A stretch of 32,974 nt of DNA from an uncultured Desulfobacteraceae bacterium (GCA_964443285.1 CAYUCJ010000001.1:1-32974), one strand, 5' to 3'; numbered from the stretch's first letter, positions 1,412 to 17,750 are shown. The notes: a model not told the origin generated them from the letters alone. Translations and numbers: made by a program.

Positions 1412-1413
1412 CT

Positions 1414-3132
1414 ATGGAACCCGATTTTCAAAAAGCATTGATTGCGGGAGTGGAGCGGGTTTCTGCATGGTCCGATGTGCTTGACCGAATCAATGTATTC
1501 CCGGTTGCGGATGGAGATACAGGACGCAATCTGAAAATCAGTCTCAGCCCGCTGCGACACATGAAAAAGCCTCGGGAAAAGACAATCCGTGATCTCCTGC
1601 TGTCGGCTCGCGGCAACTCAGGAAATATCGCAACTCGCTTTTTTTCGGGATTTTTGAACTCGGATTCCTGTGAAGGACTGTGTCATGCAACAAGAATCGG
1701 CAGGGATCTAGCGTGGGGGGCAGTGCACAACCCAGTTCCCGGAACGATGCTGACGGTTTTTGATGCTCTGGTTGATTTTTTGGAAAGAGAGGGTTTCGAA
1801 TATACCAATCAATGTGTCTCAGAGATTGTTAATCGGCTGGAAGAGGCCGTAAAGGCAACTCCGGAACTTCTGCCAAAGCTGAAATACGCCGGAGTAGTGG
1901 ATGCAGGGGCTTTGGGAATGTACATCTTTTTTGAAGGATTTTTTTTCGCTCTTGTAGGTCAAACCGAAAAATTTAGACTGATTCAGGTTGTATTCGAGAA
2001 CATGCTTGAAGTTTCTCCCTCCTTTCAGGAAGAGATGGAGGAAGGATACTGTGCAGACATGGTTCTCCACTTCCAGACCAACGCCGAAGAAAAAGTGGAG
2101 AAACTCTCCGAATGCGGTGGTAGTTTGGTAATCATTCCTCACCAGGAATATTTTAAGGTGCATTTACATACGGCTGACACCAGGAAAACCAGAAGCCGGA
2201 TTGAATGCCTGGGCGAGGTTATGCAATGGTCGGATGATAATATTGGAAGTCAAATCAAGTCGTTTAAACGCCAACCTCGCCGAGATGCCATTCATATAGT
2301 GACGGACGCGGCTGGCTCTATCACCCTCGATGATTCTTGTGAACTGGGATTTACTCTCCTTGACAGCTATATCAATGCAGGCGAAAAGTGCCTCCCTGAA
2401 ACACTGTTTTGTCCGTCCGAACTCTACAGGCTCATGCGAGCGGGCGTAAAAGCCTCGACTTCTCAGGCTTCAGTATTTGAAAGACATCAGTGTTATCAGA
2501 GAATCATTCATCAGTACCCCAGGGCACTGTACCTCTGCACAGGGTCTGTTTTCACCGGGAACTACCAGGTGGCTATGGACTGGAAACAAAAACATGATCC
2601 GGATGATTGTCTGACCGTTATCGACACTGCGGCCGCCTCAGGCAGACTGGGCGTCATTGTTATAGCCACTGCAAAATATTCCGCCAAAATCGATGACCCC
2701 GAGGCGGTGATCGAATTTGCCAATCGCACGATCAATGAGTGCCAGGAGTATGTCTTTCTTGATAAGCTTAAATATTTGGCCGCAGGAGGGCGGTTATCTA
2801 AATCAAGTGCATTTCTCGGAGACGCATTTCATGTTAAGCCGATTATCAGTCCGACGGCTGAGGGGGCTAAGAAGGTAGGCGTCGTAAAGAATCAAGAGGG
2901 GCAACTGGAGTTTGCCCTTCAGAGGCTTGAAGAGTCTCTCGATCACGCCTCAGCTCCTCTCATTATACTGGAGTATTCCGACAACCTTGCCTGGGTTATC
3001 GATACGCCAAAAAAAGAAATTGAAAGGGCTTACCCTTCAGCGGAGGTCCTGCTCAAGCCTTTATCTTTGTCTTCCGGGGTTCATATGGGTCCCGGGACCT
3101 GGGCGGTGGCCTTCCTGCCTGAATCGGCTTAG
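1414..3132 (+). CDS. DhaL/DAK2 (FakA N-terminal-like kinase domain) fused to a DegV (FakB-like fatty-acid-binding) domain
   Basis: 572 aa. The N-terminus has INVFPVADGDTGRNL and ARGNSGNI, the DAK2/YloV-FakA nucleotide-binding motifs. The C-terminal half has IHIVTDAAGS, KASTSQAS, GSVFTGNYQVA and VIDTAAASGRLG, which line up with the DegV blocks (IVTDS, TSQPS, LSGTYQSA, VIDSxxxSxGxG). The start lies 2 nt after the upstream stop. Confidence 0.85.
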   Translation: MEPDFQKALIAGVERVSAWSDVLDRINVFPVADGDTGRNLKISLSPLRHMKKPREKTIRDLLLSARGNSGNIATRFFSGFLNSDSCEGLCHATRIGRDLAWGAVHNPVPGTMLTVFDALVDFLEREGFEYTNQCVSEIVNRLEEAVKATPELLPKLKYAGVVDAGALGMYIFFEGFFFALVGQTEKFRLIQVVFENMLEVSPSFQEEMEEGYCADMVLHFQTNAEEKVEKLSECGGSLVIIPHQEYFKVHLHTADTRKTRSRIECLGEVMQWSDDNIGSQIKSFKRQPRRDAIHIVTDAAGSITLDDSCELGFTLLDSYINAGEKCLPETLFCPSELYRLMRAGVKASTSQASVFERHQCYQRIIHQYPRALYLCTGSVFTGNYQVAMDWKQKHDPDDCLTVIDTAAASGRLGVIVIATAKYSAKIDDPEAVIEFANRTINECQEYVFLDKLKYLAAGGRLSKSSAFLGDAFHVKPIISPTAEGAKKVGVVKNQEGQLEFALQRLEESLDHASAPLIILEYSDNLAWVIDTPKKEIERAYPSAEVLLKPLSLSSGVHMGPGTWAVAFLPESA

Positions 3133-3141
3133 GTTTCGAGA

Positions 3142-3993
3142 GTGAAGACAAAAAATTTCTTTCGGTTTCAGGGATTGGATGGGGACAACTCTGAAAGTTG
3201 TTACTTCAGCCTGAAGGAGGAAAATATCCGGCAGAATGTTGAGTTAACGGAAATTGACAGTAAGGGACGATTCGCTCTTGTGATTCCCACCTATAATCAC
3301 GGGAAACGAGTTGCAGAGGTTGTGAAGGAATCCCTGAAGTTTAACCTCCCATTGTTCGTGGTTGACGACGGTTCCACGGATCTAACCCAAGCCATGATTG
3401 CGGACCTCGAAGGGGTCTGTCCTCTGAGACACAATGAAAATCGCGGAAAAGGAGCGGCGATCCTTACAGGGTTTGCCGAAGCCTCTAAAGTTGCGGATTG
3501 GGCCATTACAATAGATGCGGATGGGCAACATAACCCTCAAGATGCCTTGAAAATGGTTCAGGCGATTCCTGAAAATGAACGACCTATCATCGTGGGGATG
3601 AGGCGAGGAATGGAGGGGAAGAGCGTCCCGTGGACCAGTCGATTTGGACGGAAGTTTTCCAATTTCTGGGTGTTGCTTTCAGGTGGACCCACCATGAAGG
3701 ATTCTCAAAGCGGATTCAGAATCTATCCTATCCCCGAAGCAATGAATCTGAACGTCCTTTCAAGACGATTTCAGTTCGAGGTTGAGATCCTGGTAAAGGC
3801 CGGATGGAAAAAAATGCGGGTCATCGAAGTGCCGGTCGAGGTGAATTATGGCCAGGGGGCTGAAAGGATCTCCCACTATAGGCCAGTTGTCGATTTCTTG
3901 AGAAACAGTAGCACGTTTGCCCGACTCATTATACAAAGGATAATCAGGCGTTTTACCCCTCTCTTCCGATCTGGAGGAACCCCCGTAATTTGA
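3142..3993 (+). CDS. Family 2 glycosyltransferase (DPM1/ArnC-like polyprenyl-phosphate or lipid glycosyltransferase)
   Basis: 283 aa, GTG start. Motifs: LVIPTYNH, VVDDGSTD, ENRGKGAA and the DxD-type ITIDADGQH. Confidence 0.85.
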   Translation: MKTKNFFRFQGLDGDNSESCYFSLKEENIRQNVELTEIDSKGRFALVIPTYNHGKRVAEVVKESLKFNLPLFVVDDGSTDLTQAMIADLEGVCPLRHNENRGKGAAILTGFAEASKVADWAITIDADGQHNPQDALKMVQAIPENERPIIVGMRRGMEGKSVPWTSRFGRKFSNFWVLLSGGPTMKDSQSGFRIYPIPEAMNLNVLSRRFQFEVEILVKAGWKKMRVIEVPVEVNYGQGAERISHYRPVVDFLRNSSTFARLIIQRIIRRFTPLFRSGGTPVI

Positions 3994-4089
3994 CCCCGCT
4001 TCAGCCCACAGCGGGGGAGCAAGGGAAGAAGTCGAGCGATGGGACGCAGTTCTCAGACCTCATACGCGAGGGAGCCTTAGCCGCGAGCA

Positions 4090-4977
4090 ATGAGAAAAAT
4101 TTTTCATAGAAGCGTAAGTCTGTTTTCAAAGGCAGCGGGCTCATGGATTTTTGTCGCATACGCTTGGGTCGTCTCAACAGGTTTTTTCCTCTTTTTCCCT
4201 TTAAGAGTTCGAAACAGTGTTCGCTTTTATCGGATTCTTTTTCCAGACCGTAATCGGACGTTTCATCTCTGGTGCGTTTGGCGGCAGTTTCACAATTTTG
4301 CAGATGTGTTTGTCGACCGCTTTTTGCTGCAGAAATTTTCGGATATCACATATTCGTCCGAAGGCTGGGAACACCTTGATCAAGCCCTTCGGGAAGGGCA
4401 CGGGGGAATTCTGCTCATGTCCCATATGGGGAACTGGGAGGTCGCTGCACATCTTTTAAAAAGCAAAGACCACAACCTGAAGTTGCTTCTCTACATGGGG
4501 GCCAAACATAAAGAGCAACTCGAGCGAATTCAAAAGGAGAGTCTTTCCCAAAGCGGCATAAGAATTATTGCCGTGGATCATCGAGGCGGATCTCCCTTGG
4601 ATCTTGTCGAGGGAATGAGGTTCATCAACTCGGGCGGGCTGGTTTCCTTAACCGGCGACCTGCTTTGGAAAGAGGATCAGCGGAGCGCATCGGTGACTTT
4701 CTTGGGGCAGGAAGTCTGCCTTCCAGCGACACCACACTTGCTGGCGCTTTTGTCCGGTGCTCCTTTATTTGTCTTTTTTGCCTTTCCAGCGGGAAATAGG
4801 CACTATCACTTTACCTTGTCCGAACCCATATACATCCAGGCCTCTTCCCGAGGCGAGAGAACGGAGGCCATCCGACGTTCTGCTCAAAGTTATGCAAATA
4901 TACTGGAAGAAGCCCTTCGAAAGAACCCTCTGCAATGGTATCACTTCGAGCCGTTCTTCGGTTCGAAATCAAAATGA
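4090..4977 (+). CDS. LpxL/HtrB-family (lipid A biosynthesis-type) lysolipid acyltransferase
   Basis: 295 aa with an N-terminal TM helix. GGILLMSHMGNWEVAAH matches the HX4(D/E) catalytic block of lauroyl/myristoyl acyltransferases. Overall length and layout fit this family. Confidence 0.75.
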   Translation: MRKIFHRSVSLFSKAAGSWIFVAYAWVVSTGFFLFFPLRVRNSVRFYRILFPDRNRTFHLWCVWRQFHNFADVFVDRFLLQKFSDITYSSEGWEHLDQALREGHGGILLMSHMGNWEVAAHLLKSKDHNLKLLLYMGAKHKEQLERIQKESLSQSGIRIIAVDHRGGSPLDLVEGMRFINSGGLVSLTGDLLWKEDQRSASVTFLGQEVCLPATPHLLALLSGAPLFVFFAFPAGNRHYHFTLSEPIYIQASSRGERTEAIRRSAQSYANILEEALRKNPLQWYHFEPFFGSKSK

Positions 4978-5089
4978 TCAGGAGTCCGATTCCGGTGATT
5001 CCCAAGTCTTCGCATCTTTGCGGCAGACAGAAGCCGGGAGATTTTTGGTTGCATTCGCGCCGCTCAATCTATAGCATACGGGCAGGGAA

Positions 5090-5365
5090 GTGGAAAATCT
5101 TATGAAACGCGACGAAATAGAATCCCAAATTCTCCAAATCTTCAGAGATCAATTCGAAATAGCGAACCCGGGCCTGGACCAAGACTTGAGAGAGGTGTAT
5201 GAGTTCGACAGCATCGACGCCATTGAACTCCTGAGGGAGATAGAAGTGTTGCTCGGCGCTAAACTGACGCGGGAAGAAAAGAAAAGCGCCATGGACATAC
5301 GAACGATCAACCAGATTCTTGATTACATCGAGTCGATCGGGGCGAGTAGGGCCGCACAGGTATAA
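5090..5365 (+). CDS. Acyl carrier protein (cluster-specific ACP 1)
   Basis: 91 aa from GTG 5090; an alternative ATG at 5102 would give 87 aa. The phosphopantetheine attachment motif is YEFDSIDAIELL. Confidence 0.85.
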   Translation: MENLMKRDEIESQILQIFRDQFEIANPGLDQDLREVYEFDSIDAIELLREIEVLLGAKLTREEKKSAMDIRTINQILDYIESIGASRAAQV

Positions 5366-5390
5366 CGCGTCAATTTTAAGAGATTTTTTG

Positions 5391-6629
5391 ATGAAACGAA
5401 GAGTCGTCATTACGGGATGCTCCGCCATAACGCCGATTGGTCACGGTAAGAAAGAAATCGTTCGCCATCTGGTAGATGGAATTTCCGGGGTTAAAAAATT
5501 GCGCGCTGATGATTTGCTTTCTGAATACATCCACTCCGGCGTCTATGGAACAGTGAGTTATCCGATTGAGTATGCCTTCAGGCGTCGGGATCGCAAGACC
5601 ATGGGGCCGGTTTCTTATTACGCTTGTCAAGTGGCAAAGGAGGCCATAGAAGAATCCGGTCTTGACGATGCCTATATCCGGTCAGGCAGGCTGGGTGTGG
5701 CTTTCGGGTCGACTCATGGCAGTCCTACCGTCCAAAGGCAGATCTACAAGTCGTTCTTCAGCGAATCTAAATCCGAATTCTCCTCCATAGGGGCCGTGGA
5801 TTACCTGAAATCGATGGTCCACACCACGGCAGTGAATATTACCAAGATGTTCGGCATCACCGGTCGGGTTCTCTCTTCTTCCACTGCCTGCACCACCAGC
5901 AGCCAGTCGATCGGATTCGGATACGAAATGATCAAGTTCGGCATTCAGGATGCGATGCTTTGTGGAGGCGCGGACGAGTACGACACGACGACGGTGGCCG
6001 TATTCGACAGCCTGATGGCCTGCTCGACCGCCTTCAACGACGCACCCCACCTTACCCCTCGCCCCTTCGACGAACAAAGAGACGGCCTTGTGGTTGGGGA
6101 AGGCGCTGGCGCCCTTCTGTTGGAAGAATATGAATCGGCCAAAAAGAGGAAAGCGAACATCTTGGCCGAGGTTATAGGGTTTTCCTGCAACAATAACGGC
6201 GGCGATTTGATTTTGCCTAATCTCGACGGAATTACTGAGACCATTCGTCTGGGGCTCAAAGATGCCGATGTCACCCCGGATTCAGTTGATTTTGTGAGCG
6301 CTCACGCCACTGCTACGAAGATGGGCGACATTATAGAAGCGCAAGCGATAGGAAAGGTGTACGGAACTTCTCCTGTGGTTGCAAGCTTGAAGAGCTACAT
6401 GGGACACACCATGGGATCGTGTGGGGCCATAGAGACCATCATGACCCTTTATATGATGGAAAGTGGATTTATCGCACCGACGTTGAACCTGAACAAGATC
6501 GATGAACGATGCAAGATGATTCACCTTGCGGTGGAACTCCTTGAATCCGACATTCGCCTTGCCGCGATTCAGAATTTCGCCTTTGGAGGTGTGAACACCT
6601 GTCTTGTGTTGAAGAAGTTCGATCAGTGA
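5391..6629 (+). CDS. Beta-ketoacyl-ACP synthase, FabF/FabB-like (KS-1)
   Basis: The ORF-track frame 5319..6629 is trimmed to ATG 5391 (MKRRVVITGCSAITPIG), because the longer form overlaps the ACP. The catalytic triad is present: SSTACTTSS (Cys), SAHATATKMGD (His), MGHTMGSCG (His). The C-terminus is NFAFGGVN. Confidence 0.9.
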   Translation: MKRRVVITGCSAITPIGHGKKEIVRHLVDGISGVKKLRADDLLSEYIHSGVYGTVSYPIEYAFRRRDRKTMGPVSYYACQVAKEAIEESGLDDAYIRSGRLGVAFGSTHGSPTVQRQIYKSFFSESKSEFSSIGAVDYLKSMVHTTAVNITKMFGITGRVLSSSTACTTSSQSIGFGYEMIKFGIQDAMLCGGADEYDTTTVAVFDSLMACSTAFNDAPHLTPRPFDEQRDGLVVGEGAGALLLEEYESAKKRKANILAEVIGFSCNNNGGDLILPNLDGITETIRLGLKDADVTPDSVDFVSAHATATKMGDIIEAQAIGKVYGTSPVVASLKSYMGHTMGSCGAIETIMTLYMMESGFIAPTLNLNKIDERCKMIHLAVELLESDIRLAAIQNFAFGGVNTCLVLKKFDQ

Positions 6630-7427
6630 TTGATCGGCAACACCGAGCCAAGCGAAATGAAGGCACTCTTAAGATCTCTTTATGACGTTGCGGTGACCCT
6701 ATTTCTCTGGTTTTATTACAGCCTCGGCTTCATTCTCTTCTTCGCCTCCTTCTATGTGGCCGCCTATCTTTTTTCTAAGAGTCGTGAGAGATCATTTCAG
6801 AGATTGAATCACCGATTTTACAAGGGATTCTTTTTTCTGCTCCGTCTTTTGGTCCCATGGGACAGATGGCGCATAGACGATGACGTCCTAAAAATCAGAT
6901 CTTCCGTTATCGTCTGCAACCACGTGTCGTATCTCGATCCTATCCTCATGATAGCGTTGTTTGAAAGACATAAGACTATCGTAAAGGCACGCTTTTTCAA
7001 GATGCCCATTTTTCGCCAGATCATCGAGCTGTCGGGGTACCTTCCCTCATCTTCGACCGGTAGGACAAGAAACATGATGGTTCAAAGGCTGGAAGAAATG
7101 GAGACTTACCTTGCCTCCGGTGGCAACCTCTTTGTTTTTCCGGAAGGAACGCGAAGCCGGGACGGTAAGGTGGGTCGGTTGAACAAGGGGGCGTTCAAGA
7201 TTGCCAGGCTTTGCAAAAAGCCGATCAAGGTCCTCTTCATTCGCAACACGGACAAATTGTTTCAGCCTGGAAAATTTTTGTTCAATACGTGCTCTTCGAA
7301 CACCGTCAGTGTGAAACTGCTTGCCAGCCTTGAACCTAACTATCAAAGCAGCGATTTTTCAATAGCTAAATTGGCGTCGGAGGTACATTCGTTGTTGGAG
7401 GCCCAAAGCGCGGAAGGAGCTGTTTGA
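6630..7427 (+). CDS. PlsC-family 1-acyl-sn-glycerol-3-phosphate (lysophospholipid) acyltransferase
   Basis: 265 aa from TTG 6630, which directly abuts the KS stop; an alternative ATG lies at 6657. Features: an N-terminal TM segment, the HX4D motif VCNHVSYLDP, and FPEGTRSRDG. Confidence 0.85.
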   Translation: MIGNTEPSEMKALLRSLYDVAVTLFLWFYYSLGFILFFASFYVAAYLFSKSRERSFQRLNHRFYKGFFFLLRLLVPWDRWRIDDDVLKIRSSVIVCNHVSYLDPILMIALFERHKTIVKARFFKMPIFRQIIELSGYLPSSSTGRTRNMMVQRLEEMETYLASGGNLFVFPEGTRSRDGKVGRLNKGAFKIARLCKKPIKVLFIRNTDKLFQPGKFLFNTCSSNTVSVKLLASLEPNYQSSDFSIAKLASEVHSLLEAQSAEGAV

Positions 7428-7512: not shown

Positions 7513-9003
7513 ATGAAGATTATCTTGATGTCCATGCCGGATGTGGCACCATTGATCATGCATGAATCCGCCTTCCATATGCCCAATTGCGGCATTGCCA
7601 GTGTCGGAGCGAATATCGACGACGGTCATGAAATCTACATTATCGACCTCATCCGAAAGCGCAAGCATCTGAGAAGGTATCTGACCAAGAAATTGCTGAA
7701 AATTTGTCCGGACCTTGTCGGGTTGTCGGCCATGGCATGGCAGTACGAAACCTGCGTAAAAATCATCAAGCTGATCAAGAGGCTGCTTCCGGAAACGAAG
7801 ATTCTCATCGGAGGGTACCATGCCACTTTGATGTATGAGGAGATTGCCGGATCCGACGAGGCACGATTGATCGACTTCATGGTGTGTGGAGAGGGAGAAG
7901 AGGCCTGCCGGCGTTTGGTCAATGCCCTGGAACGAAAAGATCTCTTCGAAAAGATCCCTTCGCTTTCCTACAAAAAGGGCGGACGCTTCGTCCACAATCC
8001 CAGAGGAGAGCTCCTGAATTTAGCCAAACTGAGACGTCCGATCAGAGACAAGCGGCGGTTGACCTGGGGATACCACATTATGAATTCCAAGGTTGAAGTC
8101 TTGGAAACCTCCCGGGGCTGCACGCGGACGTGCACTTTTTGCAGCATGAATCACATGTACGGGAGAGCGTTCAGGACGTTCCCAATCGAACGGGTAATGG
8201 CCGATTTGGATGAGATCTATCACCGCTGTAAGGCCAGATGGGTTTTTGTTGCAGACGACAACCTGGTCTTGGACCCTGCAAGGGTACTCAAAATCTGCGA
8301 CGCCATCATCGCACGGAATTTTCGGAACCTGCACCTGGTGGTCCAAGCTGACTGTGTGTCGATATCTCAAAATGAGGAAATGGTCCGCAAGATGGCCCAA
8401 GCCGGGATCAAAACCATTTTTCTGGGCATTGAAAACGTGTCTAAAAAGAACCTGGCCGAAGCCAGGAAGGGGAACATCGTAGAGGCCTCTCGAAAGGCTG
8501 TGGCGATGTGCCAAAAATACGACATCATGGTGGTCGGGGGGCTCATTTTCGGCTTTCCGGAAGACAACGAAACGGCCATCATAGAAAACTATGCCTTCTT
8601 GAAATCCATCGGAGCGGATACCGCCTACTGTCAGATTCTCACTCCCTATCCCAAAACCGTCATGCGCCAGCACTTGCTCGATGAAGGCCTGGTGACAAAC
8701 CTCCACGATTATAAATGGTACAATGGCATGTGGGCCAACGTGAAGACGAAGCACTTGGATTCCGATCGGCTACAGTATCTGTTCTGGTACCATCGCCAAA
8801 AGGTCCTGGGCTGGTGGGAGCCTTCGGAGCGTATCCGCCAGCAGGGATGGCTGTGGACCTCTATCTGGATCTATGCCTTCAGGCCCTTGTTGAAGCTTCT
8901 GATCAACCGGTCGCTCAGAAAGTACGGTTGGAGAGGACGCTATGAGAGAGAGATGAAACGCTTGTCCCGTGTGAACGCCTTTCCGGACCTGAAGGGGTTG
9001 TAA
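7513..9003 (+). CDS. Class B (cobalamin-binding domain) radical SAM enzyme, rSAM-1
   Basis: 496 aa. The N-terminal Rossmann-like B12-binding region is LVGLSAMAWQYETCVKIIKLIKRLLPETKILIGGYHAT. The CX3CX2C cluster motif is TSRGCTRTCTFCSM. A good SD (GAGGGAGA) lies upstream. Confidence 0.9.
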   Translation: MKIILMSMPDVAPLIMHESAFHMPNCGIASVGANIDDGHEIYIIDLIRKRKHLRRYLTKKLLKICPDLVGLSAMAWQYETCVKIIKLIKRLLPETKILIGGYHATLMYEEIAGSDEARLIDFMVCGEGEEACRRLVNALERKDLFEKIPSLSYKKGGRFVHNPRGELLNLAKLRRPIRDKRRLTWGYHIMNSKVEVLETSRGCTRTCTFCSMNHMYGRAFRTFPIERVMADLDEIYHRCKARWVFVADDNLVLDPARVLKICDAIIARNFRNLHLVVQADCVSISQNEEMVRKMAQAGIKTIFLGIENVSKKNLAEARKGNIVEASRKAVAMCQKYDIMVVGGLIFGFPEDNETAIIENYAFLKSIGADTAYCQILTPYPKTVMRQHLLDEGLVTNLHDYKWYNGMWANVKTKHLDSDRLQYLFWYHRQKVLGWWEPSERIRQQGWLWTSIWIYAFRPLLKLLINRSLRKYGWRGRYEREMKRLSRVNAFPDLKGL

Positions 9004-9011
9004 GCTCGGGC

Positions 9012-10271
9012 CTAAAGGCGCCGTCCAAAGGCGCGGCGCGCAAGGCTCCGATCTCTCGGCCTGAAAGTGTTGTCCGCCGCCTCCTTTCTGAGGACTTGTT
9101 GGAAAAGCTTGTACATCTTGATCTCTTGGGGCTCATCTTGGTAAAAGGCGTCCCAGGCGTATTGGAGCAATTGCTGTAGTCTCTCCGGAGACATGTGCTT
9201 CGGATAAAAAACAACCTTATCGGCGGAATAATCATCCCAGTCGAATGAAAAGATCCTGTCCTGCCGATTCAGGTCGTCGAAGGCCTTGGTTTGAGGGAAG
9301 GGCGTCAACACTGTAAACTCTGCAAGGTCCAGTTCGATCTCGAGCAGGAAATCGATCAGCCGCTTGATGCCGTCTTCCGTATGGCGGTCGAGTCCAAGAA
9401 GAATCGTGCCCTCCACCGAAATGCCATAGTCGTGGTACCTTTTGATCCTGTCCCGAATATAATCCGAGGTGTCGAAGACCGCCTGATACACATACCAGGC
9501 CCCGGCGCGCGCAGCTAAGTCGAGCACCTCCGGCTTGTCCTCGATGGGATGGCTGCACCACTTTTTCTTTAATGGAATCATCTCCTTGAACAACTCCATT
9601 TCCCATTGAGTATCTTGGGCAAGGGAATTGTCCACGATGAACAATCGGTTGTTATCGATGCTGGCCATCTCTTCGACGGCCTTGGGGACGGGACGCGGCC
9701 TGAACTCTCTCCCCCCCAGATAGGCCACCGCACAAGGATAGCAGTGATAACGGCACCCGCGAGAGGCGTGAACCAGGTCGACCATCTGGATGCCTTTGTA
9801 GTTGTAAAGGTCGCGTTTCAGAATGTCCCTTCGAGCGGTACCTACAGTCTCGATCGGCGGTTTGTCGTCGAGGTGGTTGTAAACCTTTTGCAACCGGTCT
9901 TTCCTGAAGTCCGCAAAGACCCTCTCCATCTTTCCTTCGGCCTCGCCAATGAAGACGGAGTCCGCATGCCTCATGGTTTCCTCGGCGTGGAGCATCGCGG
10001 CTATGCCGCCGCAGATCACCTTGACGCCCTTTTGCCGGTAGGCTTCTGCGATCTCCCACCCCCTCTTGACCTGAAGGGTCAGCATCATGGATATGCCGAC
10101 AAAATCAACCGAGGCGTTAAAATCGAGCTCCTCCAGGTTCTCGTCGACGAACGACACTTCGACGTCGTGCGGCAGGGATGCGGCGAAGACGGCCGGCCCG
10201 TGAGGTGGCAGGTGAAATTCGGTTTGTCTCTTCAGTTTCGGCCATCGCGGATATATCAGTTTGAACTTCAT
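9012..10271 (-). CDS. Class B (cobalamin-binding domain) radical SAM enzyme, rSAM-2
   Basis: 419 aa. The B12-domain-like N-terminus is FVGISMMLTLQVKRGWEIAEAYRQKGVKVICGG. The CX3CX2C motif is ASRGCRYHCYPCAV. It is convergent with rSAM-1, with stop codons 8 bp apart. Confidence 0.9.
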   Translation of the reverse strand: MKFKLIYPRWPKLKRQTEFHLPPHGPAVFAASLPHDVEVSFVDENLEELDFNASVDFVGISMMLTLQVKRGWEIAEAYRQKGVKVICGGIAAMLHAEETMRHADSVFIGEAEGKMERVFADFRKDRLQKVYNHLDDKPPIETVGTARRDILKRDLYNYKGIQMVDLVHASRGCRYHCYPCAVAYLGGREFRPRPVPKAVEEMASIDNNRLFIVDNSLAQDTQWEMELFKEMIPLKKKWCSHPIEDKPEVLDLAARAGAWYVYQAVFDTSDYIRDRIKRYHDYGISVEGTILLGLDRHTEDGIKRLIDFLLEIELDLAEFTVLTPFPQTKAFDDLNRQDRIFSFDWDDYSADKVVFYPKHMSPERLQQLLQYAWDAFYQDEPQEIKMYKLFQQVLRKEAADNTFRPRDRSLARRAFGRRL

Positions 10272-10350: not shown

Positions 10351-11022
10351 CTAATCTCTTATCCGAACGGCTTCTATCAGGTTCATGATCAGTTTGTAGC
10401 TCTGAGGGCCATGCGCGGAGAGCTCGATTTTTTTTGGGACCCCTGCGTTGCCTTCGGCGTCTTTCCCAGACGTAATCTTCACGGTTCGGAGCAGGCGATC
10501 ATCTTGCGCGTATTGTCTGATTTCCCAGTGTCCGCCGTGTCTGCAAAGCACGTCTTCGAATCCTCCATCGGCTTCTCGATGCCTGCAGATCGAGGTCCCG
10601 TTCTTTAGAAACCCTGACTCGACGGCTGCCCCCTCAGGCCTAAGGAAGATGAGACGAATGTCCTTTACGAGACCCTCCGCGAACGCTCGTGAATCGAAAG
10701 GGGCAAAGGCCCGGTTGACTGTGAGCCTCCGGCGGTAGGTTGCATCGAAGACCACCAGACCCTCAAGGGTCATGATGACGCAGTGAAAAGATCGGTCCGC
10801 AGAAGAAATCACCGCGATACCGATGACAAAAACCTTTTTCCCGTCAGGCATGACGTCTTCGATCGAATGTACGAACTGCCATTTGCCCTTCGGAAAATGA
10901 TTTAGACAGGTTTGACGGATCCGTGTTGCGGCGAGCCTCCCTGCCGGACCCACTCGCGGGAGGTTGCTGCACGAAGTGAGAAGGGCGACGACCGCCAGCA
11001 GTGGAAGGAGGCGTCTCATCAC
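10351..11022 (-). CDS. Lipoprotein of unknown function, cluster-associated
   Basis: 223 aa with a signal peptide and lipobox (MMRRLLPLLAVVALLTSC). The start overlaps the LolA-like stop (GTGA, or TGATG if ATG 11019 is used). Its size and its position beside the LolA-like gene recall the uncharacterised lipoprotein of aryl-polyene-type clusters. That link is an inference, not verified. Confidence 0.65.
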   Translation of the reverse strand: MMRRLLPLLAVVALLTSCSNLPRVGPAGRLAATRIRQTCLNHFPKGKWQFVHSIEDVMPDGKKVFVIGIAVISSADRSFHCVIMTLEGLVVFDATYRRRLTVNRAFAPFDSRAFAEGLVKDIRLIFLRPEGAAVESGFLKNGTSICRHREADGGFEDVLCRHGGHWEIRQYAQDDRLLRTVKITSGKDAEGNAGVPKKIELSAHGPQSYKLIMNLIEAVRIRD

Positions 11023-11636
11023 GGTTGCCGGAATAAAATATCATCGATCGGTTGATTAATTGTCACCCTATCGAACACGATCTTCGTGAAGGAGTCTCGG
11101 TCTTCGAAGATGGTCACGGATTTTATCACGCTGGTGCCATCGGAAAGGACGATTTCGATTCGCTGAATCAAGGCGGCAAGGGATTGCTCTTTCGGCACGA
11201 GCACGATCTTTCGGCCATGCTCCAAGGTCGATGTAAGAGCAGGATTCTCATCGAAGTGTCCTTTCAGCCAGTTGGTGATTTCCTGCACAACCATCTGCAT
11301 GGACGGTAGATTTGCCGAAGCGTCTGCGACAAGATTGCCATTTCTCAGAACATAGCGCTTCGTTTTGCCGTTCTGTGTCAACAGGATGCTTCGAACGGGG
11401 TATCTATATTCCCATCGAAGCGAGTCGGGAGTCCTAAAACAAAAGATCCCTCCCGAAACCAGGGGACTGGAAAGAATTTTCATGTGCCTATACTGGGTAA
11501 ATTCGCCACGCACAGAAGTAATTCTTCCAGCAGAAATTTTTATATCGTTCCAGGTATCCGCCCGAACGCTACTTGAATAGGTTGCCACGAAAATCATGAC
11601 ACATGCGAACACGAATGCAGATGTTGTTTTCTCCAT
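11019..11636 (-). CDS. LolA-like outer-membrane lipoprotein/lipid carrier protein
   Basis: 205 aa with a signal peptide (FVFACVMIFVATYSSSVRA). The blocks GEFTQYRHMKILSSPLVSGGIFCFRTPDSLRWEYRYP fit the LolA-fold family (FxQ ... SxG ... P ... RWEY). Confidence 0.75.
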   Translation of the reverse strand: MEKTTSAFVFACVMIFVATYSSSVRADTWNDIKISAGRITSVRGEFTQYRHMKILSSPLVSGGIFCFRTPDSLRWEYRYPVRSILLTQNGKTKRYVLRNGNLVADASANLPSMQMVVQEITNWLKGHFDENPALTSTLEHGRKIVLVPKEQSLAALIQRIEIVLSDGTSVIKSVTIFEDRDSFTKIVFDRVTINQPIDDILFRQP

Positions 11637-11756: not shown

Positions 11757-12494
11757 TTAAAACATTCCTCCGTTTACAGATAATACTTGACCGGTAATAT
11801 AGGATGCATCGTCGGAACAGAGGAATCTTACAACCTTAGCTACTTCCTCCGGCTTGCCGACCCTCGCCATCGGGATGACAGCCTTAATATTTTCCACCGG
11901 TGCCTCCTTTATCATATCTGTCTCTATGAGACCCGGTGCCACCACATTCACTCGGATCCCCAATCTGGCCACTTCGGATGCAACGGCTCTACTGGCGCCG
12001 ATCAGTCCCGCTTTCGCTGCTGAGTAATTCGCTTGACCTCTATTTGCGACCAAAGCGGCGATAGAAGAAATCGATACGATGGCTCCACGTTTTTGAAAGA
12101 TCATTTTTTCGAGGAGAGGTCTGGTTACGTTGTAGAATCCGCAGAGGCTTGTATTGATCACCGTTTCCCAGTCTTCACGGGGCATCATGACAAACAAGCC
12201 GTCAGAGTGAATGCCAGCGTTATTTACCAGAACATCGACCGACTCGAAGCTTTCAATGATCTCGTCAACGGCCTTTTGGGTCTCATCCCGACTCGAAACA
12301 TCAAATTTCATGATCTTGCCTTTGGAGCCCTGGTGTCTTAATGCCTCGAGGGTTTCAGTTGCTCCCTGCTTATCCGACCTGTAGTTGACTACGACATAGT
12401 ATCCGGATTTTGCCAGTTCGACGCAGATGGCCCGTCCGATTCCTCTACTGCCGCCGGTCACTACCGCAACTTTACCAACAGATTCTCCAATCAC
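11757..12494 (-). CDS. fabG: 3-oxoacyl-ACP reductase (SDR, FabG-like)
   Basis: 245 aa, GTG start. Motifs: VVTGGSRGIGRAI (TGxxxGxG), NNAG, and the Ser...YSAAK (YxxxK) catalytic set. Confidence 0.92.
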   Translation of the reverse strand: MIGESVGKVAVVTGGSRGIGRAICVELAKSGYYVVVNYRSDKQGATETLEALRHQGSKGKIMKFDVSSRDETQKAVDEIIESFESVDVLVNNAGIHSDGLFVMMPREDWETVINTSLCGFYNVTRPLLEKMIFQKRGAIVSISSIAALVANRGQANYSAAKAGLIGASRAVASEVARLGIRVNVVAPGLIETDMIKEAPVENIKAVIPMARVGKPEEVAKVVRFLCSDDASYITGQVLSVNGGMF

Positions 12495-12515: not shown

Positions 12516-12956
12516 TTATAAACTGTCTGAACCAACCTGAACCAACTGCAATGTAATTTCCCCAACAATCTTCGAGTGGATATGGACTGTTCCCGCAATC
12601 TCTCTGAAGTTATCAAATTTGAATATATTTTTGCTCATGGTAATGATGCGCGTGTTTAATGGAATGACGTCAACAAAGAAATGAGACTGCTTGATGCCGA
12701 CCAACCATCCCTTTCTTACGAATTCCTCACCCTGTGTTCGTATGCCGTGCCAGCAATTACAGATCCCGGCTGTTTGAGCGACAATTTCGATCAGTATAAG
12801 TGCATTTACTGCTTTTCCGTCAAACAAAGGCCAATTAGAGGAAACATTCGAAAGTGTGGTAGCCTTCTCTTCATCCACTTCAATAATTTCTTCGACAAGC
12901 TTCATTCTGCCTCGATGGGGCAGAAGGTCTTCAACAGGTATGTTAGCCCTGTTCAC
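12516..12956 (-). CDS. Single-hotdog 3-hydroxyacyl-ACP dehydratase (FabA/FabZ-like)
   Basis: 146 aa, GTG start. The N-terminus LLPHRGRMKLVEEI matches the LPHRxPxLLxD-type start of FabZ/FabA-like dehydratases. It is the first gene of the minus-strand operon. Confidence 0.7.
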   Translation of the reverse strand: MNRANIPVEDLLPHRGRMKLVEEIIEVDEEKATTLSNVSSNWPLFDGKAVNALILIEIVAQTAGICNCWHGIRTQGEEFVRKGWLVGIKQSHFFVDVIPLNTRIITMSKNIFKFDNFREIAGTVHIHSKIVGEITLQLVQVGSDSL

Positions 12957-13043: not shown

Positions 13044-13170
13044 ACCTCCCCTGTAGGTTAAAGAAATAAATATGAACATGTCCAACTTTTCAGGCGTCCG
13101 GCACCCAACCGAAAGGGTTCTGGAAGGTTCTCCCCCGCAACACACCTAGGTAATGATTTCGGGAAACAAA

Positions 13171-13437
13171 ATGGAAAATCTAATCAATGAGCTCAAAGTC
13201 AAGATCATCGATTTGTTGAATTTGACTGATCTGAACCCGGATGACATTGGTGCCGACGATCAGTTGGTCGGCACAGAGCTTGCGATCGACTCCATTGATG
13301 TGCTCGAAATGGTGATCATGATAGAAAAGGACTATGGCATCAAGATCGAAAGTCGTGAACTCGGAGTCAGAATCTTTGCAACCCTGAGGTCCTTGGCTGA
13401 ATATATTCATGAAAATTGCCGGGAGCTGCCCAATTGA
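13171..13437 (+). CDS. Acyl carrier protein (cluster-specific ACP 2)
   Basis: The ORF-track frame starts at 13153. ATG 13171 is preferred because GGGA lies 6 nt upstream. The attachment motif is LAIDSIDVLEMV. Confidence 0.85.
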   Translation: MENLINELKVKIIDLLNLTDLNPDDIGADDQLVGTELAIDSIDVLEMVIMIEKDYGIKIESRELGVRIFATLRSLAEYIHENCRELPN

Positions 13438-15593
13438 CGGGAACTCGGGCTTACATTTCAGGCATGGGGGTGATCAGTTCCCTCGGTTCTGGAATTTTGG
13501 AGACGACAGACGCAATTCGAAAGGATTTGAACGGTCTCAGACCTCTGACTCTTTTCCCCTCAACACCGAATTATCCTGTCGGTGAAGTCTCCGGACCGAT
13601 TCAAACAGATTCCCTCCCACGAACCCACCTTCTCGCCCGTCTAGCAGCTGATCAGGCAATGAGCGAATCGGACGAAGCGCCTGATGCGGTCGTCCTTGGA
13701 ATAACAACCGGCGGAATGTCGACAACCGAAAACCTTTTGGAAAAGAAGAAGGATGATCCAGGATTATTTTGCTATCATGCCGCTGCATCGGTTGCAGAAG
13801 ACCTCGCAATACGATACCTATGTACAGGGCCTGTGATTACTGTTTCCACTGCCTGTTCCTCCGGAGCTGTCGCCATAAAACTTGCCTTGGAAATGCTACG
13901 GGCCCGCCTCGCCGAAAGAGTTCTTGCTGGAGGGGCGGATGCGTTGTGCCGTTTGACCTATTTCGGATTCAAATCCCTGCAGCTCATCGACCCCATCGGT
14001 TGCCGTCCCCTGGATAGGGACCGGCGCGGGATGTCCATGGCCGAAGGTGCGGCTATGCTGCTGCTGACCAACCGACCTGATAGGGCAGTGGCAGAGGTCC
14101 TCGGAGCAGGATTATCATGTGATGCTTATCATCTTGTGAAACCGGATCCCCAGGGTAGGGGTGCCTTGGCTGCCATGCACGCGGCCATACTGGATGCAGG
14201 GATTTCGGCGTCGGATATCGACTATATTAACCTTCATGGTACCGGTACACCGGACAACGATTGTTCCGAGGCCGAGGCAATAAATACCCTATTTCCCGAT
14301 CAGAAACCCCTATTGTCGTCCGTAAAAGGAGCCTTTGGGCATTCTTTGGCCGCTGCGGGAGCCATTGAAGCAGTGATTTCAGCCATCAGCGTTTCCAGGG
14401 ACCTCGTTCCCGGCAATGAAGGGTGCCAATTTCCCGACGCCGATCTAAAATTAGACCCGGTTATGAAACCGACCGATTTCCCCGTTGATTGCGTGCTGTC
14501 GAATTCTTTTGGTTTTGGGGGAAACAACGCTTCTGTTATCATCGGTGCCCCTGGAAGGTCCCGCTGTTACGCCCCTTCCTCAAAAACGGAGCCTCTAGCG
14601 ATCCTCGGATACGCCTGCCTAACAGGAGCGGGAGATACGGAGGCTACGATGGCAAGAATATCCATGGGAAGCTCCTGCAAAGGGGTATTGTCCCTTCAGC
14701 GGATATCAAAAAATCTTCCGTCTCGAATCGTTCGCCGCCTAAAGCGCTTGCCTCGGATATCTCTTTCCCTAGCGATAGCGGCCCTTGAAAAGTCAGGCCG
14801 GACCATTCCACCCTCCTCAGTTTTCATGGGCACAGGTTGGGGTGCTCTCTCTGAGACTCATGATTTTCTGACACGCCTTTTCGAAACCGGCGGGCAGTTC
14901 CCGAGCCCTACAGACTTCGTAGGGTCGGTTCATAATGCTTCCGCCGGCCAAGTCGCTTTACATTTTCAGTCCACCGATGCCAATGTCACCACCACCGGAG
15001 GTGACTACTCTTTTGAACAGGCTCTCTTGGCCGCTCAGCTCCTTGCCAGGGACGGCAATAACAGTTCTTTTGTAATCGGGGCGGACGAATCCCATTCGGT
15101 ATTGTCCAAGTATTTCGACGATTCCGTCTTGACTGATGAGATCCTTTCCGATGGGGGCGGTGCTTTTTGCCTGTCGAATGGGGATAGCGAATCAGGTTTA
15201 TACATCCATCTCAGTTTTTACGAAAACGTACAGAACAATCCGGAAGTGGTGGCATCCCTCGTGTCACGTTTGGGTGGTCCGGCTCAGATACAAACTACAT
15301 ATGGAGTACTTCTGACGGGGATTCCCGGGGGTTGTCGGCGAGAAAGTGAAAAACAGTTCCGGCAATTCCTTTCTCTATCAGGCTTAAAAAGCCCTGTGAT
15401 TGATTACCGTAAACTAACTGGTGAATTTGCCTCCTCGTCAGCGGTTGCGGCCGTACTGGCGGCCGGATTCATGGAGAAAGGAGTGATTCCCGTCTCGCTC
15501 TGTAGCAACCGTTCAGCTCTCCTCGACGGGAAACGCGCCCTAGTCTTGGGGCTGGGCAAATTTGTCACGGCCTTGGAACTGTTGAGAAGATGA
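13434..15593 (+). CDS. Fused beta-ketoacyl synthase (KS-2) and Cys-less KS-like/chain-length-factor-like domain
   Basis: The ORF-track frame starts at 13416. TTG 13434 is preferred (TTGA overlap with the ACP stop, GGGAG 8 nt upstream). The N-terminal half carries VSTACSSGAV (Cys), NLHGTGTPDND (His), FGHSLAAAGAIE (His) and NSFGFGGNNASV. The C-terminal half (from about LAILGYACLTGAGD) repeats the KS fold start, but TTTGGDYSFEQAL stands where the active-site Cys motif should be, and no His-His pair is recognisable. Confidence 0.85.
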   Translation: MTGTRAYISGMGVISSLGSGILETTDAIRKDLNGLRPLTLFPSTPNYPVGEVSGPIQTDSLPRTHLLARLAADQAMSESDEAPDAVVLGITTGGMSTTENLLEKKKDDPGLFCYHAAASVAEDLAIRYLCTGPVITVSTACSSGAVAIKLALEMLRARLAERVLAGGADALCRLTYFGFKSLQLIDPIGCRPLDRDRRGMSMAEGAAMLLLTNRPDRAVAEVLGAGLSCDAYHLVKPDPQGRGALAAMHAAILDAGISASDIDYINLHGTGTPDNDCSEAEAINTLFPDQKPLLSSVKGAFGHSLAAAGAIEAVISAISVSRDLVPGNEGCQFPDADLKLDPVMKPTDFPVDCVLSNSFGFGGNNASVIIGAPGRSRCYAPSSKTEPLAILGYACLTGAGDTEATMARISMGSSCKGVLSLQRISKNLPSRIVRRLKRLPRISLSLAIAALEKSGRTIPPSSVFMGTGWGALSETHDFLTRLFETGGQFPSPTDFVGSVHNASAGQVALHFQSTDANVTTTGGDYSFEQALLAAQLLARDGNNSSFVIGADESHSVLSKYFDDSVLTDEILSDGGGAFCLSNGDSESGLYIHLSFYENVQNNPEVVASLVSRLGGPAQIQTTYGVLLTGIPGGCRRESEKQFRQFLSLSGLKSPVIDYRKLTGEFASSSAVAAVLAAGFMEKGVIPVSLCSNRSALLDGKRALVLGLGKFVTALELLRR

Positions 15594-16939
15594 AAATCCT
15601 GCTGGTCTCAGCCAACACTCTGAAGGAACCCTACCCTGTTTATCCGCTTGGCCTGGATTATGTGGCAGCGGCTGTCTCCGTCCATCACGACGTTCAGATC
15701 GCCGACATGAATGCCTTAGAAAGCTATGAACTGCTTCGAGAAACCATTGGAGAGTTCTCGCCCGATGTGGTGGGCATTTCACTGCGGAACATAGATAATA
15801 CCGACGTCTCCGATCCAATGGGGTTTGCCGAATCCTACCACGAACTTGTTGAGACGATTCGGGATTGTTCCGATGCGATACTTGTCTTAGGGGGAAGCGG
15901 TTTTACCATTTACCCTGATACGTTCATGAACGCCCTCAAAGCGGATTACGGCATTGTTGGGGAGGGGGAGCGTTTGGTCCTGCTCCTTGACGCGATCGAA
16001 AACCACCAAGATGCGGCGGTGATTCCAGGAGTGGTAACGCCCGGTCTTAGCAAACCCTTTCCGGGACCGTGGAAAGGAACTTTTTTTCGGGACTTTCGCG
16101 GAGACCGACCTCATGTAGAGTTTTACCTTAAAAGAGGCGGTATGTTGAACCTCCAAACCAAGCGTGGATGCGGCTACCGATGCATTTATTGCACTTATCC
16201 TCACATCGAAGGCCCTGTCCAGCGGTTCGTTTCCCCGGAAGAGGCGGCGGGTAGCGCGATTCAGCTGCAAGCGGCTGGAGCGAAATATCTTTTCGTTACG
16301 GATTCAGCTTTCAATTCTGACGTTGCCCACAGCCTAGATGTTGCCCGTGCCTTTGTAGAAGCGGGTGTGTCCATACCGTGGGGGGCGTATTTCACTCCTG
16401 CTGAGCCTCCCCCAAATTACTTCCGGATAATGGCAGATGCGGGGTTGATCCATGTGGAATTCGGCACAGAGTCCCTTTCCGACCGGGTGCTCGCATCATA
16501 TCGGAAACCTTTCAGGTCCCGAGACATCTTCGAAGCGCATCGGAGCGCCATTGACGCCGGGTTGCATGTAGCCCATTTCTTCCTGTTGGGGGGACCCGGC
16601 GAGACTTCGGACACCCTGGACGAGACCCTGGGGCGCCTTGACGGGCTTGAGAAGTCCGCTCTCTTTTTTTTCTGCGGCATGCGCATTTACCCGAATACGA
16701 AGCTGTTCGAGATGGCGGTCAATGAGGGGCAGACAGCGAAAAGCGAAAGCGTCATGGCGCCCCTATTTTACCGCTCGGCATTCATCGAAACCGCTGAGAT
16801 CCTTCGCCGCCTGAAAGAACGCGGGGAAGACCGCCTCAACTGGATCATCGGGTCGGGCGGCCGAAAGATGGCAAAGGTGATCGAGAGACTGCATGAACGC
16901 GGCCATACAGGTCCCCTTTGGGAATATCTCGTCAGATGA
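15590..16939 (+). CDS. Class B (cobalamin-binding domain) radical SAM enzyme, rSAM-3
   Basis: 449 aa. ATGA overlap with the KS-CLF stop. The B12-domain-like N-terminus is VVGISLRNID...AILVLGGSGFT. The CX3CX2C motif is TKRGCGYRCIYCTY. Confidence 0.9.
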   Translation: MKILLVSANTLKEPYPVYPLGLDYVAAAVSVHHDVQIADMNALESYELLRETIGEFSPDVVGISLRNIDNTDVSDPMGFAESYHELVETIRDCSDAILVLGGSGFTIYPDTFMNALKADYGIVGEGERLVLLLDAIENHQDAAVIPGVVTPGLSKPFPGPWKGTFFRDFRGDRPHVEFYLKRGGMLNLQTKRGCGYRCIYCTYPHIEGPVQRFVSPEEAAGSAIQLQAAGAKYLFVTDSAFNSDVAHSLDVARAFVEAGVSIPWGAYFTPAEPPPNYFRIMADAGLIHVEFGTESLSDRVLASYRKPFRSRDIFEAHRSAIDAGLHVAHFFLLGGPGETSDTLDETLGRLDGLEKSALFFFCGMRIYPNTKLFEMAVNEGQTAKSESVMAPLFYRSAFIETAEILRRLKERGEDRLNWIIGSGGRKMAKVIERLHERGHTGPLWEYLVR

Positions 16940-17345: not shown

Positions 17346-17462
17346 CGAAACGAATGGCGGATGATCGGATACAGGGTCGGGGGGTACCCGTCGAGAGGTT
17401 TTTATTAGAGGTCGGTTGCCGGAAGGCGAGGAGCTATTAATCCAGAGCAAGGGAGAGTAAAG

Positions 17463-17750
17463 ATGTCCACCAAAATGAACGTTGAGCAATTAATCCTACG
17501 TGTCGCGGAAATCATCATCCAAGAGCTCAAGCTGGAAGATGTTACGCCGGAAACGTTCAATCCCGAGATCGATTTAGTAGACGAAGTGGGAGTCGACAGC
17601 ATGGATCTGGCCACCGTGGCTTTGGTCTTGCAGGATGAATATGCGATTCGGATCGATGAAGACGACTATCCAAGACTGGCGAACGTCCGCCTCATCGCTG
17701 AATACATCCTTCAAAAGCAAAACGAAGGGACTGAGAAATCAGCTGCTTAG
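17463..17750 (+). CDS. Acyl carrier protein (cluster-specific ACP 3)
   Basis: 95 aa with a strong SD (AAGGGAGAG). The attachment motif is VGVDSMDLATV. Confidence 0.85.
   Translation: MSTKMNVEQLILRVAEIIIQELKLEDVTPETFNPEIDLVDEVGVDSMDLATVALVLQDEYAIRIDEDDYPRLANVRLIAEYILQKQNEGTEKSAA

Follow-up and report, generated by a model that had tools for sequence, protein, structure and literature searches.

We examined a 32,974-nucleotide (nt) stretch of DNA from an uncultured Desulfobacteraceae bacterium (GCA_964443285.1, CAYUCJ010000001.1:1-32974; hereafter the window), in which two genes for radical S-adenosylmethionine (SAM) proteins, named here rSAM-1 and rSAM-2, run towards each other and end 8 bp apart. 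We consider it probable that the two proteins are evolutionarily separate class-B-type tailoring enzymes of a two-module, aryl-polyene-like type II fatty-acid synthase/polyketide synthase cluster, and that the tight junction between their genes is contingent. The pair is laid out as follows.

7513..9003, plus strand: rSAM-1, class-B-type radical SAM protein, 496 amino acids (aa)
9004..9011, no strand: spacer between both stop codons, 8 nt
9012..10271, minus strand: rSAM-2, class-B-like radical SAM protein, 419 aa

The open reading frames (ORFs) match these coordinates exactly, the stop codons being TAA at 9001-9003 for rSAM-1 and TAG, read on the reverse complement, at 9012-9014 for rSAM-2. 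Homologues have the same lengths (496 aa for rSAM-1 and 419-420 aa for rSAM-2) and share the C-termini as well; therefore both gene ends are native, neither truncated nor extended. Both proteins combine a cysteine motif in the radical SAM core with a Rossmann-like N-domain, as expected of class B enzymes. The CX3CX2C motif reads CTRTCTFC in rSAM-1 (C203/C207/C210) and CRYHCYPC in rSAM-2 (C173/C177/C180). The Pfam scores of rSAM-1 are well above threshold for B12-binding (PF02310, 67.9 bits) and for Radical_SAM (PF04055, 59.4 bits); rSAM-2 is marginal for PF02310 (32.8 bits, threshold 32.1) and below threshold for PF04055 (20.9 bits, threshold 29.5), its core being supported by fold matches in the Protein Data Bank (PDB). 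AlphaFold models, confident for rSAM-2 (pLDDT 94.4, pTM 0.91) and acceptable for rSAM-1 (pLDDT 80.5), give both proteins a Rossmann-like N-domain, a radical SAM core and a C-domain, and the cobalamin-binding fold, whose absence had been raised as a possible objection, is thus present in both models. Pairwise identity among rSAM-1, rSAM-2 and rSAM-3, a third protein encoded in the window, is 22-23% (23% for the convergent pair), so that the three are not close paralogues. An earlier note on this DNA had described a convergent pair with stop codons 8 bp apart, each gene closing one of two opposing gene strings without a terminator at the junction, and each protein carrying an N-terminal B12-binding-type domain and the cysteine motif without being a close paralogue of the other; this description is borne out throughout, with operon membership inferred from spacing and conserved gene order.

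The origin of the junction was traced through synteny. A scan of species-representative genomes gave at least 561 stretches with confirmed relatives of rSAM-2; the best 80 of these, with 76-87% identity to rSAM-2, were fetched with their flanks and all window proteins were mapped on them, and the arrangement was counted at the 47 loci with enough downstream flank. In most loci rSAM-2 stands directly after the lipoprotein gene and ends an operon for a dehydratase (DH), a ketoreductase (KR), a LolA-like carrier and the lipoprotein. The module to which rSAM-1 belongs, from a thioesterase gene to a PlsC-like acyltransferase gene, moves as a block and lies in either orientation relative to rSAM-2. 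It is convergent, with rSAM-1 less than 1 kb from rSAM-2, at eight of the 47 loci; at another eight it is convergent with an insert of 1.6-6.3 kb, which often holds an extra pair of chain-length factor (CLF) and ketosynthase (KS) genes; at 17, mainly from Desulfobulbales, it is co-directional, rSAM-1 following rSAM-2 on the same strand at a distance of about 7 kb; five loci have a convergent module without rSAM-1, and nine have no module within 10 kb of rSAM-2. The stop-to-stop gaps of the convergent loci are 1, 40, 67, 110, 193, 516, 879 and 910 nt, followed by values from 1584 to 6303 nt. The closest relative among the loci fetched, L001 from HGW-Deltaproteobacteria-15, encodes an rSAM-1 with 86% and an rSAM-2 with 87% identity to their counterparts in the window, the last ten residues agreeing at 9 and 8 positions, respectively. 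Its two genes are separated by a 67-nt spacer (11261-11327) with a stable hairpin (folding free energy -27.3 kcal/mol, z = -2.64) that may act as a terminator in both directions; the window lacks about 59 nt of this spacer. The 8-bp junction is a recent, lineage-specific loss of spacer between modules whose orientation varies freely. Because synteny varies and L001 keeps its 67-nt spacer, we regard the junction as a contingent layout and not as a conserved feature; the convergent pair as a conserved unit was likewise rejected on synteny.

The earlier note had gone further and predicted from the head-on arrangement that read-through would produce antisense transcripts over both 3' ends. One could imagine in this vein that the tight junction is a selected regulatory feature, in which antisense read-through or collision of RNA polymerases couples or limits both operons. 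Read-through in both directions is indeed physically likely across an 8-nt gap at which a consensus scan found no terminator-like site and where a 111-nt stretch over the junction is no more stably folded than shuffled sequence (z = -0.43 and -0.48 for the two strands). Two other convergent junctions of the window, 25251/25279 and 30589/30606, have gaps of 27 nt and 16 nt, both without terminator-like hairpins, and tight tail-to-tail junctions are the local norm. Such equally tight junctions speak for general genome compaction and against a selected device, as do the small share of adjacent convergent loci next to the 17 co-directional ones, the spread of gaps, from 1 to 193 nt in the five tightest pairs and as far as 6.3 kb over all convergent loci, and the hairpin spacer of the nearest relative. 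We therefore hold a regulatory junction to be very improbable; the arrangement invoked by the earlier note is not conserved, and a regulatory role of antisense read-through finds no comparative support.

If the junction is contingent, the two genes that meet there differ in standing. rSAM-1 is an accessory gene, the optional last gene of the attachment/assembly operon: wherever it occurs it closes the attachment module, and at least five modules that are otherwise intact do without it. rSAM-2 belongs to the core and closes the minus-strand DH/KR/LolA/lipoprotein operon; its presence in every locus is by construction of the sample, and its standing can be read from sequence conservation. Across the same 80 genomes rSAM-2 has a median identity of 78%; the FabG-like ketoreductase (67%), KS-CLF (54%), the dehydratase (46%), LolA (45%) and the lipoprotein (41%) all lie lower, and the single cluster protein that is more conserved is another radical SAM protein, rSAM-5 (79%). 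The weak Pfam score of rSAM-2 might have suggested a radical SAM protein in decay, but its invariant cysteines, its confident model and this second-highest conservation led us to reject the idea.

The rSAM-2 orthogroup is sharply delimited. A phmmer search of 1.8 billion representatives clustered at 50% identity returned a full-length relative at 79%, a relative at 53%, a handful of incomplete or shorter sequences at 48-83%, and then nothing above 39%. Relatives at about 35% identity lie in unrelated neighbourhoods and match no curated family; transfer of function from two of them, P0253 and P0257, was rejected as their contexts are unrelated (one methyltransferase/corrinoid, one probably archaeal). 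Thousands of close homologues of rSAM-1 and rSAM-2 occur in metagenome bins of Desulfobacterales and Thermodesulfobacteriota under generic annotation only, and an exact look-up of rSAM-1 in a contig index gave no record. The 53% orthologue of rSAM-2 lies in a related cluster, L081 (Logan SRR22746133 contig, 1-19300), where it heads an operon for two acyl carrier proteins (ACPs), a KS and a CLF. L081 carries genes for an aromatic ammonia-lyase, an AMP-ligase (AMP-binding enzyme) and a phytoene-desaturase-like amine oxidase, and no gene of the TIGR04072 type. Aromatic ammonia-lyase and AMP-ligase are hallmarks of starter-unit supply in aryl-polyene biosynthesis; the content of L081 links the rSAM-2 orthogroup with machinery of the polyene type, and does so more closely than holds for the 'ladderane' TIGR04072 protein itself.

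Within this orthogroup the enzyme departs from its wider family at positions that are otherwise nearly fixed. The three cluster cysteines are invariant in 90 relatives, and conservation is strict for GG and GEAE in the N-domain as well. The histidine of the GGxH motif, which 79 of 84 more distant relatives keep, is missing from the orthogroup. The derived positions, near-invariant in the 84 distant relatives, are residues 91, 96, 174, 179, 215-216, 297 and 327. In the N-domain, His91 (of GGxH) and Pro96 have become Ala; in the Fe-S loop the Pro after the first cysteine is replaced by Arg and the aromatic residue before the third cysteine by Pro, giving CRYHCYPC; elsewhere DDN has changed to DNS, Asp297 to His, and the Gly of the PGT motif to His or Gln. 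These derived residues are themselves conserved in the orthogroup, a pattern that marks an enzyme which has taken on a new function and is strongly constrained. The five cysteines that rSAM-2 has in total make an auxiliary cluster unlikely.

Attempts to assign the proteins to a characterised class B family were rejected on NCBIfam, all scores being far below cut-off. For rSAM-1, scores and cut-offs in bits are 168/481 for BchE (TIGR02026), 127.6/650 for HpnR (TIGR04367), 104/578 for HpnJ (TIGR03471), 101/600 for PhpK, 88/700 for KedN5, 103.6/360 for TIGR04072 and 61.7/500 for AprD4 (NF033070); for rSAM-2 they are 35/481 (BchE), 33/650 (HpnR), 42/578 (HpnJ), 48.8/360 (TIGR04072) and 27/500 (AprD4). 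Against the Tes/GDGT-MAS model NF045702 (cut-off 450), rSAM-1 reaches 22.2 bits and rSAM-2 gives no match; PDB entry 7tol matches rSAM-1 weakly (E 6e-5). BchE and HpnR, the best-scoring curated families for rSAM-1, align over about 400 residues and both act on hydrophobic substrates; no tetrapyrrole or hopanoid genes lie near rSAM-1. Some homologues bear more specific labels, 'anaerobic magnesium-protoporphyrin IX monomethyl ester cyclase' (BchE) for rSAM-1 in JGI records and 'YgiQ family' for both, and these are over-predictions, the BchE label because 168 bits fall short of the cut-off of 481.

The fold comparison leads to a different enzyme. The closest fold of rSAM-2 in the PDB is AprD4 (E 5e-19, TM 0.78-0.79), followed by MgmA (1.5e-15, TM 0.64), TsrM and CysS, and AprD4 is its best PDB profile match too. 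AprD4 (TM 0.69) is also the top match of rSAM-1, nearly tied with the cobalamin-bound MgmA, TsrM, TokK, CysS and OxsB. This radical SAM 1,2-diol dehydratase of apramycin biosynthesis (PDB 6fd2) has the same three parts as rSAM-1 and rSAM-2, namely N-domain, partial TIM-barrel core and C-domain; unlike the two proteins, which are 16-18% identical to it and stand in a lipid/polyketide context, it acts on an aminoglycoside. AprD4 binds no cobalamin although it clusters with B12-dependent enzymes and has a Rossmann-like domain (PMC12931638). As the top match does without the cofactor, a cobalamin-binding fold is no proof of cobalamin use. Cobalamin dependence seems plausible for rSAM-1 and likely for rSAM-3, and it may be called an open question for rSAM-2. 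The multiple cobalamin-dependent modifications of an acyl chain that the earlier note had deduced thus keep their footing in the class-B-type architecture and the lipid cluster, but the use of cobalamin is not established, least of all for rSAM-2 with its marginal domain score and its lost GGxH histidine.

Two readings of the chemistry have to be weighed here. The first would make rSAM-1, rSAM-2 and rSAM-3 all cobalamin-dependent C-methyltransferases that place methyl branches on unactivated acyl carbons, as HpnP/HpnR, Fom3 and GenK do. Most characterised class B enzymes are indeed methyltransferases (PMC12931638), the B12-binding domain of rSAM-1 is strong, the hopanoid C-3 methylase HpnR is its second-best curated family, and both its sequence and its fold match the methylases TokK, CysS, TsrM and MgmA. 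These arguments are countered by curated scores far under the cut-offs for HpnR, PhpK and KedN5, by the cobalamin-free dehydratase as the best fold match of both proteins, by the marginal B12-binding match of rSAM-2 and its missing GGxH histidine, by the window's lack of a cobalamin riboswitch (no other Rfam family and no transfer RNA was found in it either), and by a conventional SAM methyltransferase domain that the cluster already possesses, fused to its MMPL protein. We judge methylation by all three to be rather unlikely. Since neither protein of the pair reaches the cut-off of a characterised family, be it HpnR, BchE, PhpK, Tes or TIGR04072, the acyl-chain methylation to which the earlier note points amounts to a guess from family statistics and is not upheld.

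According to the second reading, rSAM-2 would be a cobalamin-independent, AprD4-like enzyme whose N-domain binds substrate and which, together with the KR and DH of its operon, would catalyse a dehydration, rearrangement or cyclisation by radical chemistry on a hydroxylated or unsaturated ACP-bound intermediate. The structural and profile matches, the cobalamin-free Rossmann-like domain of AprD4, the marginal Pfam score, the loss of His91 and Pro96 from the N-domain motif throughout the orthogroup and the shared operon all fit such an enzyme. Yet rSAM-2 is only 17-18% identical to AprD4 and reaches 27 of the 500 bits of its family model; sequence searches of the PDB, even one with a 90-sequence profile, aligned significantly in the radical SAM core and C-domain only, so that the similarity does not extend to the N-domain; and the strictly conserved GG and GEAE motifs also fit cofactor binding. 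An AprD4-like rSAM-2 strikes us on balance as unlikely.

According to Pfam and NCBIfam, one large lipid/polyketide cluster fills the contig from 974 to at least 32485 (about 32 kb), with five radical SAM genes and three ACPs in total. Its other parts are the following.

1-973: upstream region, AT-richer (GC content 0.42), no convincing gene; may hold a promoter region or the cluster border
974..7427, plus strand: attachment/assembly operon upstream of rSAM-1 (Pfam/NCBIfam)
1414-3132, plus strand: Dak2-DegV (FakA-like) fusion, an unusual fusion
5090-5365, plus strand: ACP3 (PF00550, 33.7 bits), slightly overlapping the annotated TTG start of the KS (5319)
5319-6629, plus strand: KS
6630-7427, plus strand: PlsC-like acyltransferase
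10351..11022, minus strand: lipoprotein of unknown family, with lipobox LLTSC and signal peptide, directly upstream of rSAM-2
11019..11636, minus strand: LolA-like carrier, flexirubin LolA2-like (PF03548, 47.3 bits; NF053544, 91.6 bits, below the cut-off of 125)
11757..12494, minus strand: FabG/FlxB-like ketoreductase (adh_short_C2, 216 bits; FlxB, 310 bits, below the cut-off of 340)
12516..12956, minus strand: ApeP/FabZ-like dehydratase (PF22817, 31.6 bits), first gene of the minus-strand operon
13153-13437, plus strand: ACP1, start of the divergent core operon (first part 13153..16939)
13416-15593, plus strand: fused KS-CLF, 725 aa, an unusual fusion
15590-16939, plus strand: rSAM-3 (TIGR04072, 379.4 bits, above the cut-off of 360)
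16986..25251, plus strand: core operon, continued (Pfam/NCBIfam)
17635-18861, plus strand: ORF of a radical SAM gene without B12 domain, start probably near 17770, as the longer ORF overlaps ACP2
18912-19910, plus strand: rSAM-5, radical SAM protein without B12 domain
22892-24553, plus strand: fusion of a polyketide-synthase-type dehydratase and a phosphopantetheinyl transferase (PPTase), an unusual fusion, fused likewise in L081
25836..32485, both strands: further cluster genes, with a glycosyltransferase of family GT25, the MMPL fusion and a polysaccharide deacetylase (plus) and a CLF/KS pair (minus)
26598-29672, plus strand: fusion of an MMPL/RND transporter and a SAM methyltransferase, 1024 aa, an unusual fusion

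The upstream region may also contain the short 3' end of a minus-strand gene at 166-288. The operon that ends with rSAM-1 encodes, in this order, a 4HBT thioesterase, the Dak2-DegV fusion, a family 2 glycosyltransferase (GT2), an LpxL-like acyltransferase, ACP3, the KS and the PlsC-like acyltransferase; as ACP3 lies directly 5' of the KS, this operon has its own ACP-KS pair. On the minus strand, the ketoreductase exceeds the cut-off of the FabG model PRK05653.1-5 (307 against 273 bits), and the lipoprotein, detected in 68 of the 80 loci, has no match in Pfam or NCBIfam and sits where aryl-polyene clusters have ApeN. The second part of the core operon holds an ApeI-like DH, ACP2, two radical SAM genes, two KS, a 4HBT thioesterase, the DH-PPTase fusion and a PagL-like protein. 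The three class-B-type proteins that the earlier note had counted in one lipid cluster are there, rSAM-3 passing its family cut-off, but they are part of a larger set of five radical SAM genes.

By Pfam and NCBIfam, the cluster contains the following machinery of the aryl-polyene type: KS-CLF, ACP, KR, ApeI/ApeP-type DH, LolA-like carrier, MMPL protein, GT2, lysophospholipid-acyltransferase-type (LPLAT) protein and thioesterase. With the Ape and Flx clusters it shares ApeI/ApeP-like DH, an FlxB-like reductase, KS-CLF, a LolA2-like carrier, a lipoprotein, MMPL, GT2, LPLAT and 4HBT thioesterases; it differs from them in that the FlxB and LolA2 scores stay below the equivalog cut-offs and that the window has no gene for an aromatic ammonia-lyase or an adenylation enzyme. 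To our knowledge, the Ape and Flx clusters described so far include neither a set of five radical SAM genes nor a FakA-like kinase.

A second likeness is with ladderane-type FASII (type II fatty-acid synthase) clusters, and it raises the question whether the radical SAM enzymes cyclise a polyene to give carbocyclic lipids, ladderane-like or not, in the way that has been proposed for anammox bacteria. The clusters of Desulfotalea psychrophila and Kuenenia stuttgartiensis also have multiple FabF/KS genes, dedicated ACPs, FabZ/FabG-like enzymes, several radical SAM genes, a polysaccharide deacetylase, a methyltransferase, a glycosyltransferase and a membrane transporter, and the type occurs in Deltaproteobacteria/Desulfobacterota. 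Unlike them, the window shows no phytoene-dehydrogenase-like and no phenylacetyl-CoA-ligase-like gene; L081 has its amine oxidase and AMP-ligase. rSAM-3 belongs to the 'ladderane' family TIGR04072 (rSAM_ladder_B12, 'lipid biosynthesis B12-binding/radical SAM protein'), a family with the same architecture and cluster type as rSAM-1 and rSAM-2; these two form separate orthogroups without a curated model. antiSMASH labels such clusters 'ladderane', and the polyene-type KS-CLF/KR/DH machinery lacks an enoyl reductase, none having been found among the window ORFs scanned. However, Desulfotalea psychrophila, which like other Deltaproteobacteria has a cluster of this type syntenic with those of Kuenenia, was found to contain no ladderanes (Rattray et al. 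2009, PMC2649909), ladderanes are known solely from anammox Planctomycetota (PMC9902471), and the role of such genes is unproven even in anammox bacteria. A ladderane-like product is in our opinion extremely improbable. The cluster is a known, uncharacterised kind that is common in sulfate-reducing bacteria and is routinely mislabelled 'ladderane'.

Our favoured explanation of the pair, tailoring enzymes at the ends of two modules, can be worded as a working model. The cluster consists of a biosynthetic core module, whose minus-strand operon (DH, KR, LolA and lipoprotein) ends with rSAM-2, and an activation/attachment module (thioesterase, fatty-acid-kinase-like Dak2-DegV protein, GT2, LpxL-like acyltransferase, ACP, KS and PlsC-like acyltransferase) closed by rSAM-1 where this optional gene is present. 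Here the modules face each other and have lost their spacer, which leaves the 8-bp tail-to-tail junction. This organisation, like the domain architecture, the folds, the synteny, the variable junction and the core or accessory standing of the two genes, is shown by the data; the reaction steps proposed below draw on what is established for type II aryl-polyene synthases and for radical SAM chemistry. KS-CLF, KR and DH, working without an enoyl reductase, would build an unsaturated acyl-ACP chain. rSAM-2, a presumably cytoplasmic enzyme with a single [4Fe-4S] site, would split SAM into a 5'-deoxyadenosyl radical and activate a C-H bond of the ACP-bound chain as a core step; the remaining radical SAM enzymes of the core would modify this chain by way of such a radical too. 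The thioesterase and the FakA-like kinase may then release and re-activate the acid, which the acyltransferases and GT2 would attach to a glyco- or acyl-lipid anchor. rSAM-1 could act late and optionally, on the chain or on the lipid once assembled; its BchE/HpnR-like profile scores make a methylation or a ring formation with the help of cobalamin the most plausible reaction. Finally, LolA, the lipoprotein and the MMPL protein would carry the product to the outer membrane.

Several points weigh against this explanation. The loci were picked by similarity to rSAM-2, so that the frequencies of arrangements are not unbiased. Neither an aromatic ammonia-lyase nor an aryl-adenylating enzyme for the supply of an aryl starter was found among the ORFs scanned in this 33-kb contig, and 'aryl-polyene-like' therefore names the machinery and not necessarily the product. 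For all members of the cluster, the product, the substrates, the reaction types and the use of cobalamin are inferred, and the reaction types proposed for rSAM-1 and rSAM-2 are guesses from sequence, neither protein reaching a curated cut-off. The deviation of rSAM-2 at near-invariant positions, CRYHCYPC for instance, could moreover result in an atypical SAM chemistry.

It is tempting to go one step further and to see in rSAM-2 the signature catalyst of an undescribed class of lipids or pigments of sulfate reducers, with a radical chemistry new for fatty-acyl substrates acting on an ACP-bound polyene. We offer this as a speculative and, for the moment, doubtful proposal; it draws on the ultra-conserved and sharply delimited orthogroup, which occurs in more than 500 species-level genomes, on the derived motifs (CRYHCYPC, and the GGxH histidine lost) and on the AprD4-like fold, and a cyclisation, a cross-linking or a cobalamin-independent rearrangement could be examples of such chemistry. 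A 2026 review (PMC13459092) describes the modification of acyl (non-isoprenoid) lipids by radical SAM enzymes as a field hardly explored, with ladderanes and jawsamycin so far the sole acyl lipids even proposed as substrates. Clusters of the present kind are expressed in Desulfobacterota, as seen in a metatranscriptome of anoxic waters whose authors concluded that their function is unknown (PMC9902471), and our literature searches retrieved no paper characterising the cluster product or the rSAM-1 and rSAM-2 orthogroups.

It is worth adding that the cluster reaches beyond the sulfate reducers. The whole of it is present in an isolate of a purple sulfur gammaproteobacterium, Thiorhodococcus mannitoliphagus DSM 18266 (L063, rSAM-2 at 78% identity), and in two bins labelled Gammaproteobacteria and Pseudomonadota (L007, L039), which suggests transfer between phyla or, for the two bins, mis-binning.

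The 8-bp junction itself is of little significance, and the interest of the locus lies in the cluster product and in the radical SAM chemistry behind it. rSAM-2 and rSAM-5 form the constrained core of the cluster and are the entry point for experiments, for which Desulfobulbus rhabdoformis (strain DSM 8777), Desulforhopalus sp. IMCC35007 and Thiorhodococcus mannitoliphagus are cultured carriers; the presence or absence of rSAM-1 varies naturally between lineages. The product of the cluster could also serve as a novel sedimentary biomarker of sulfate reducers.

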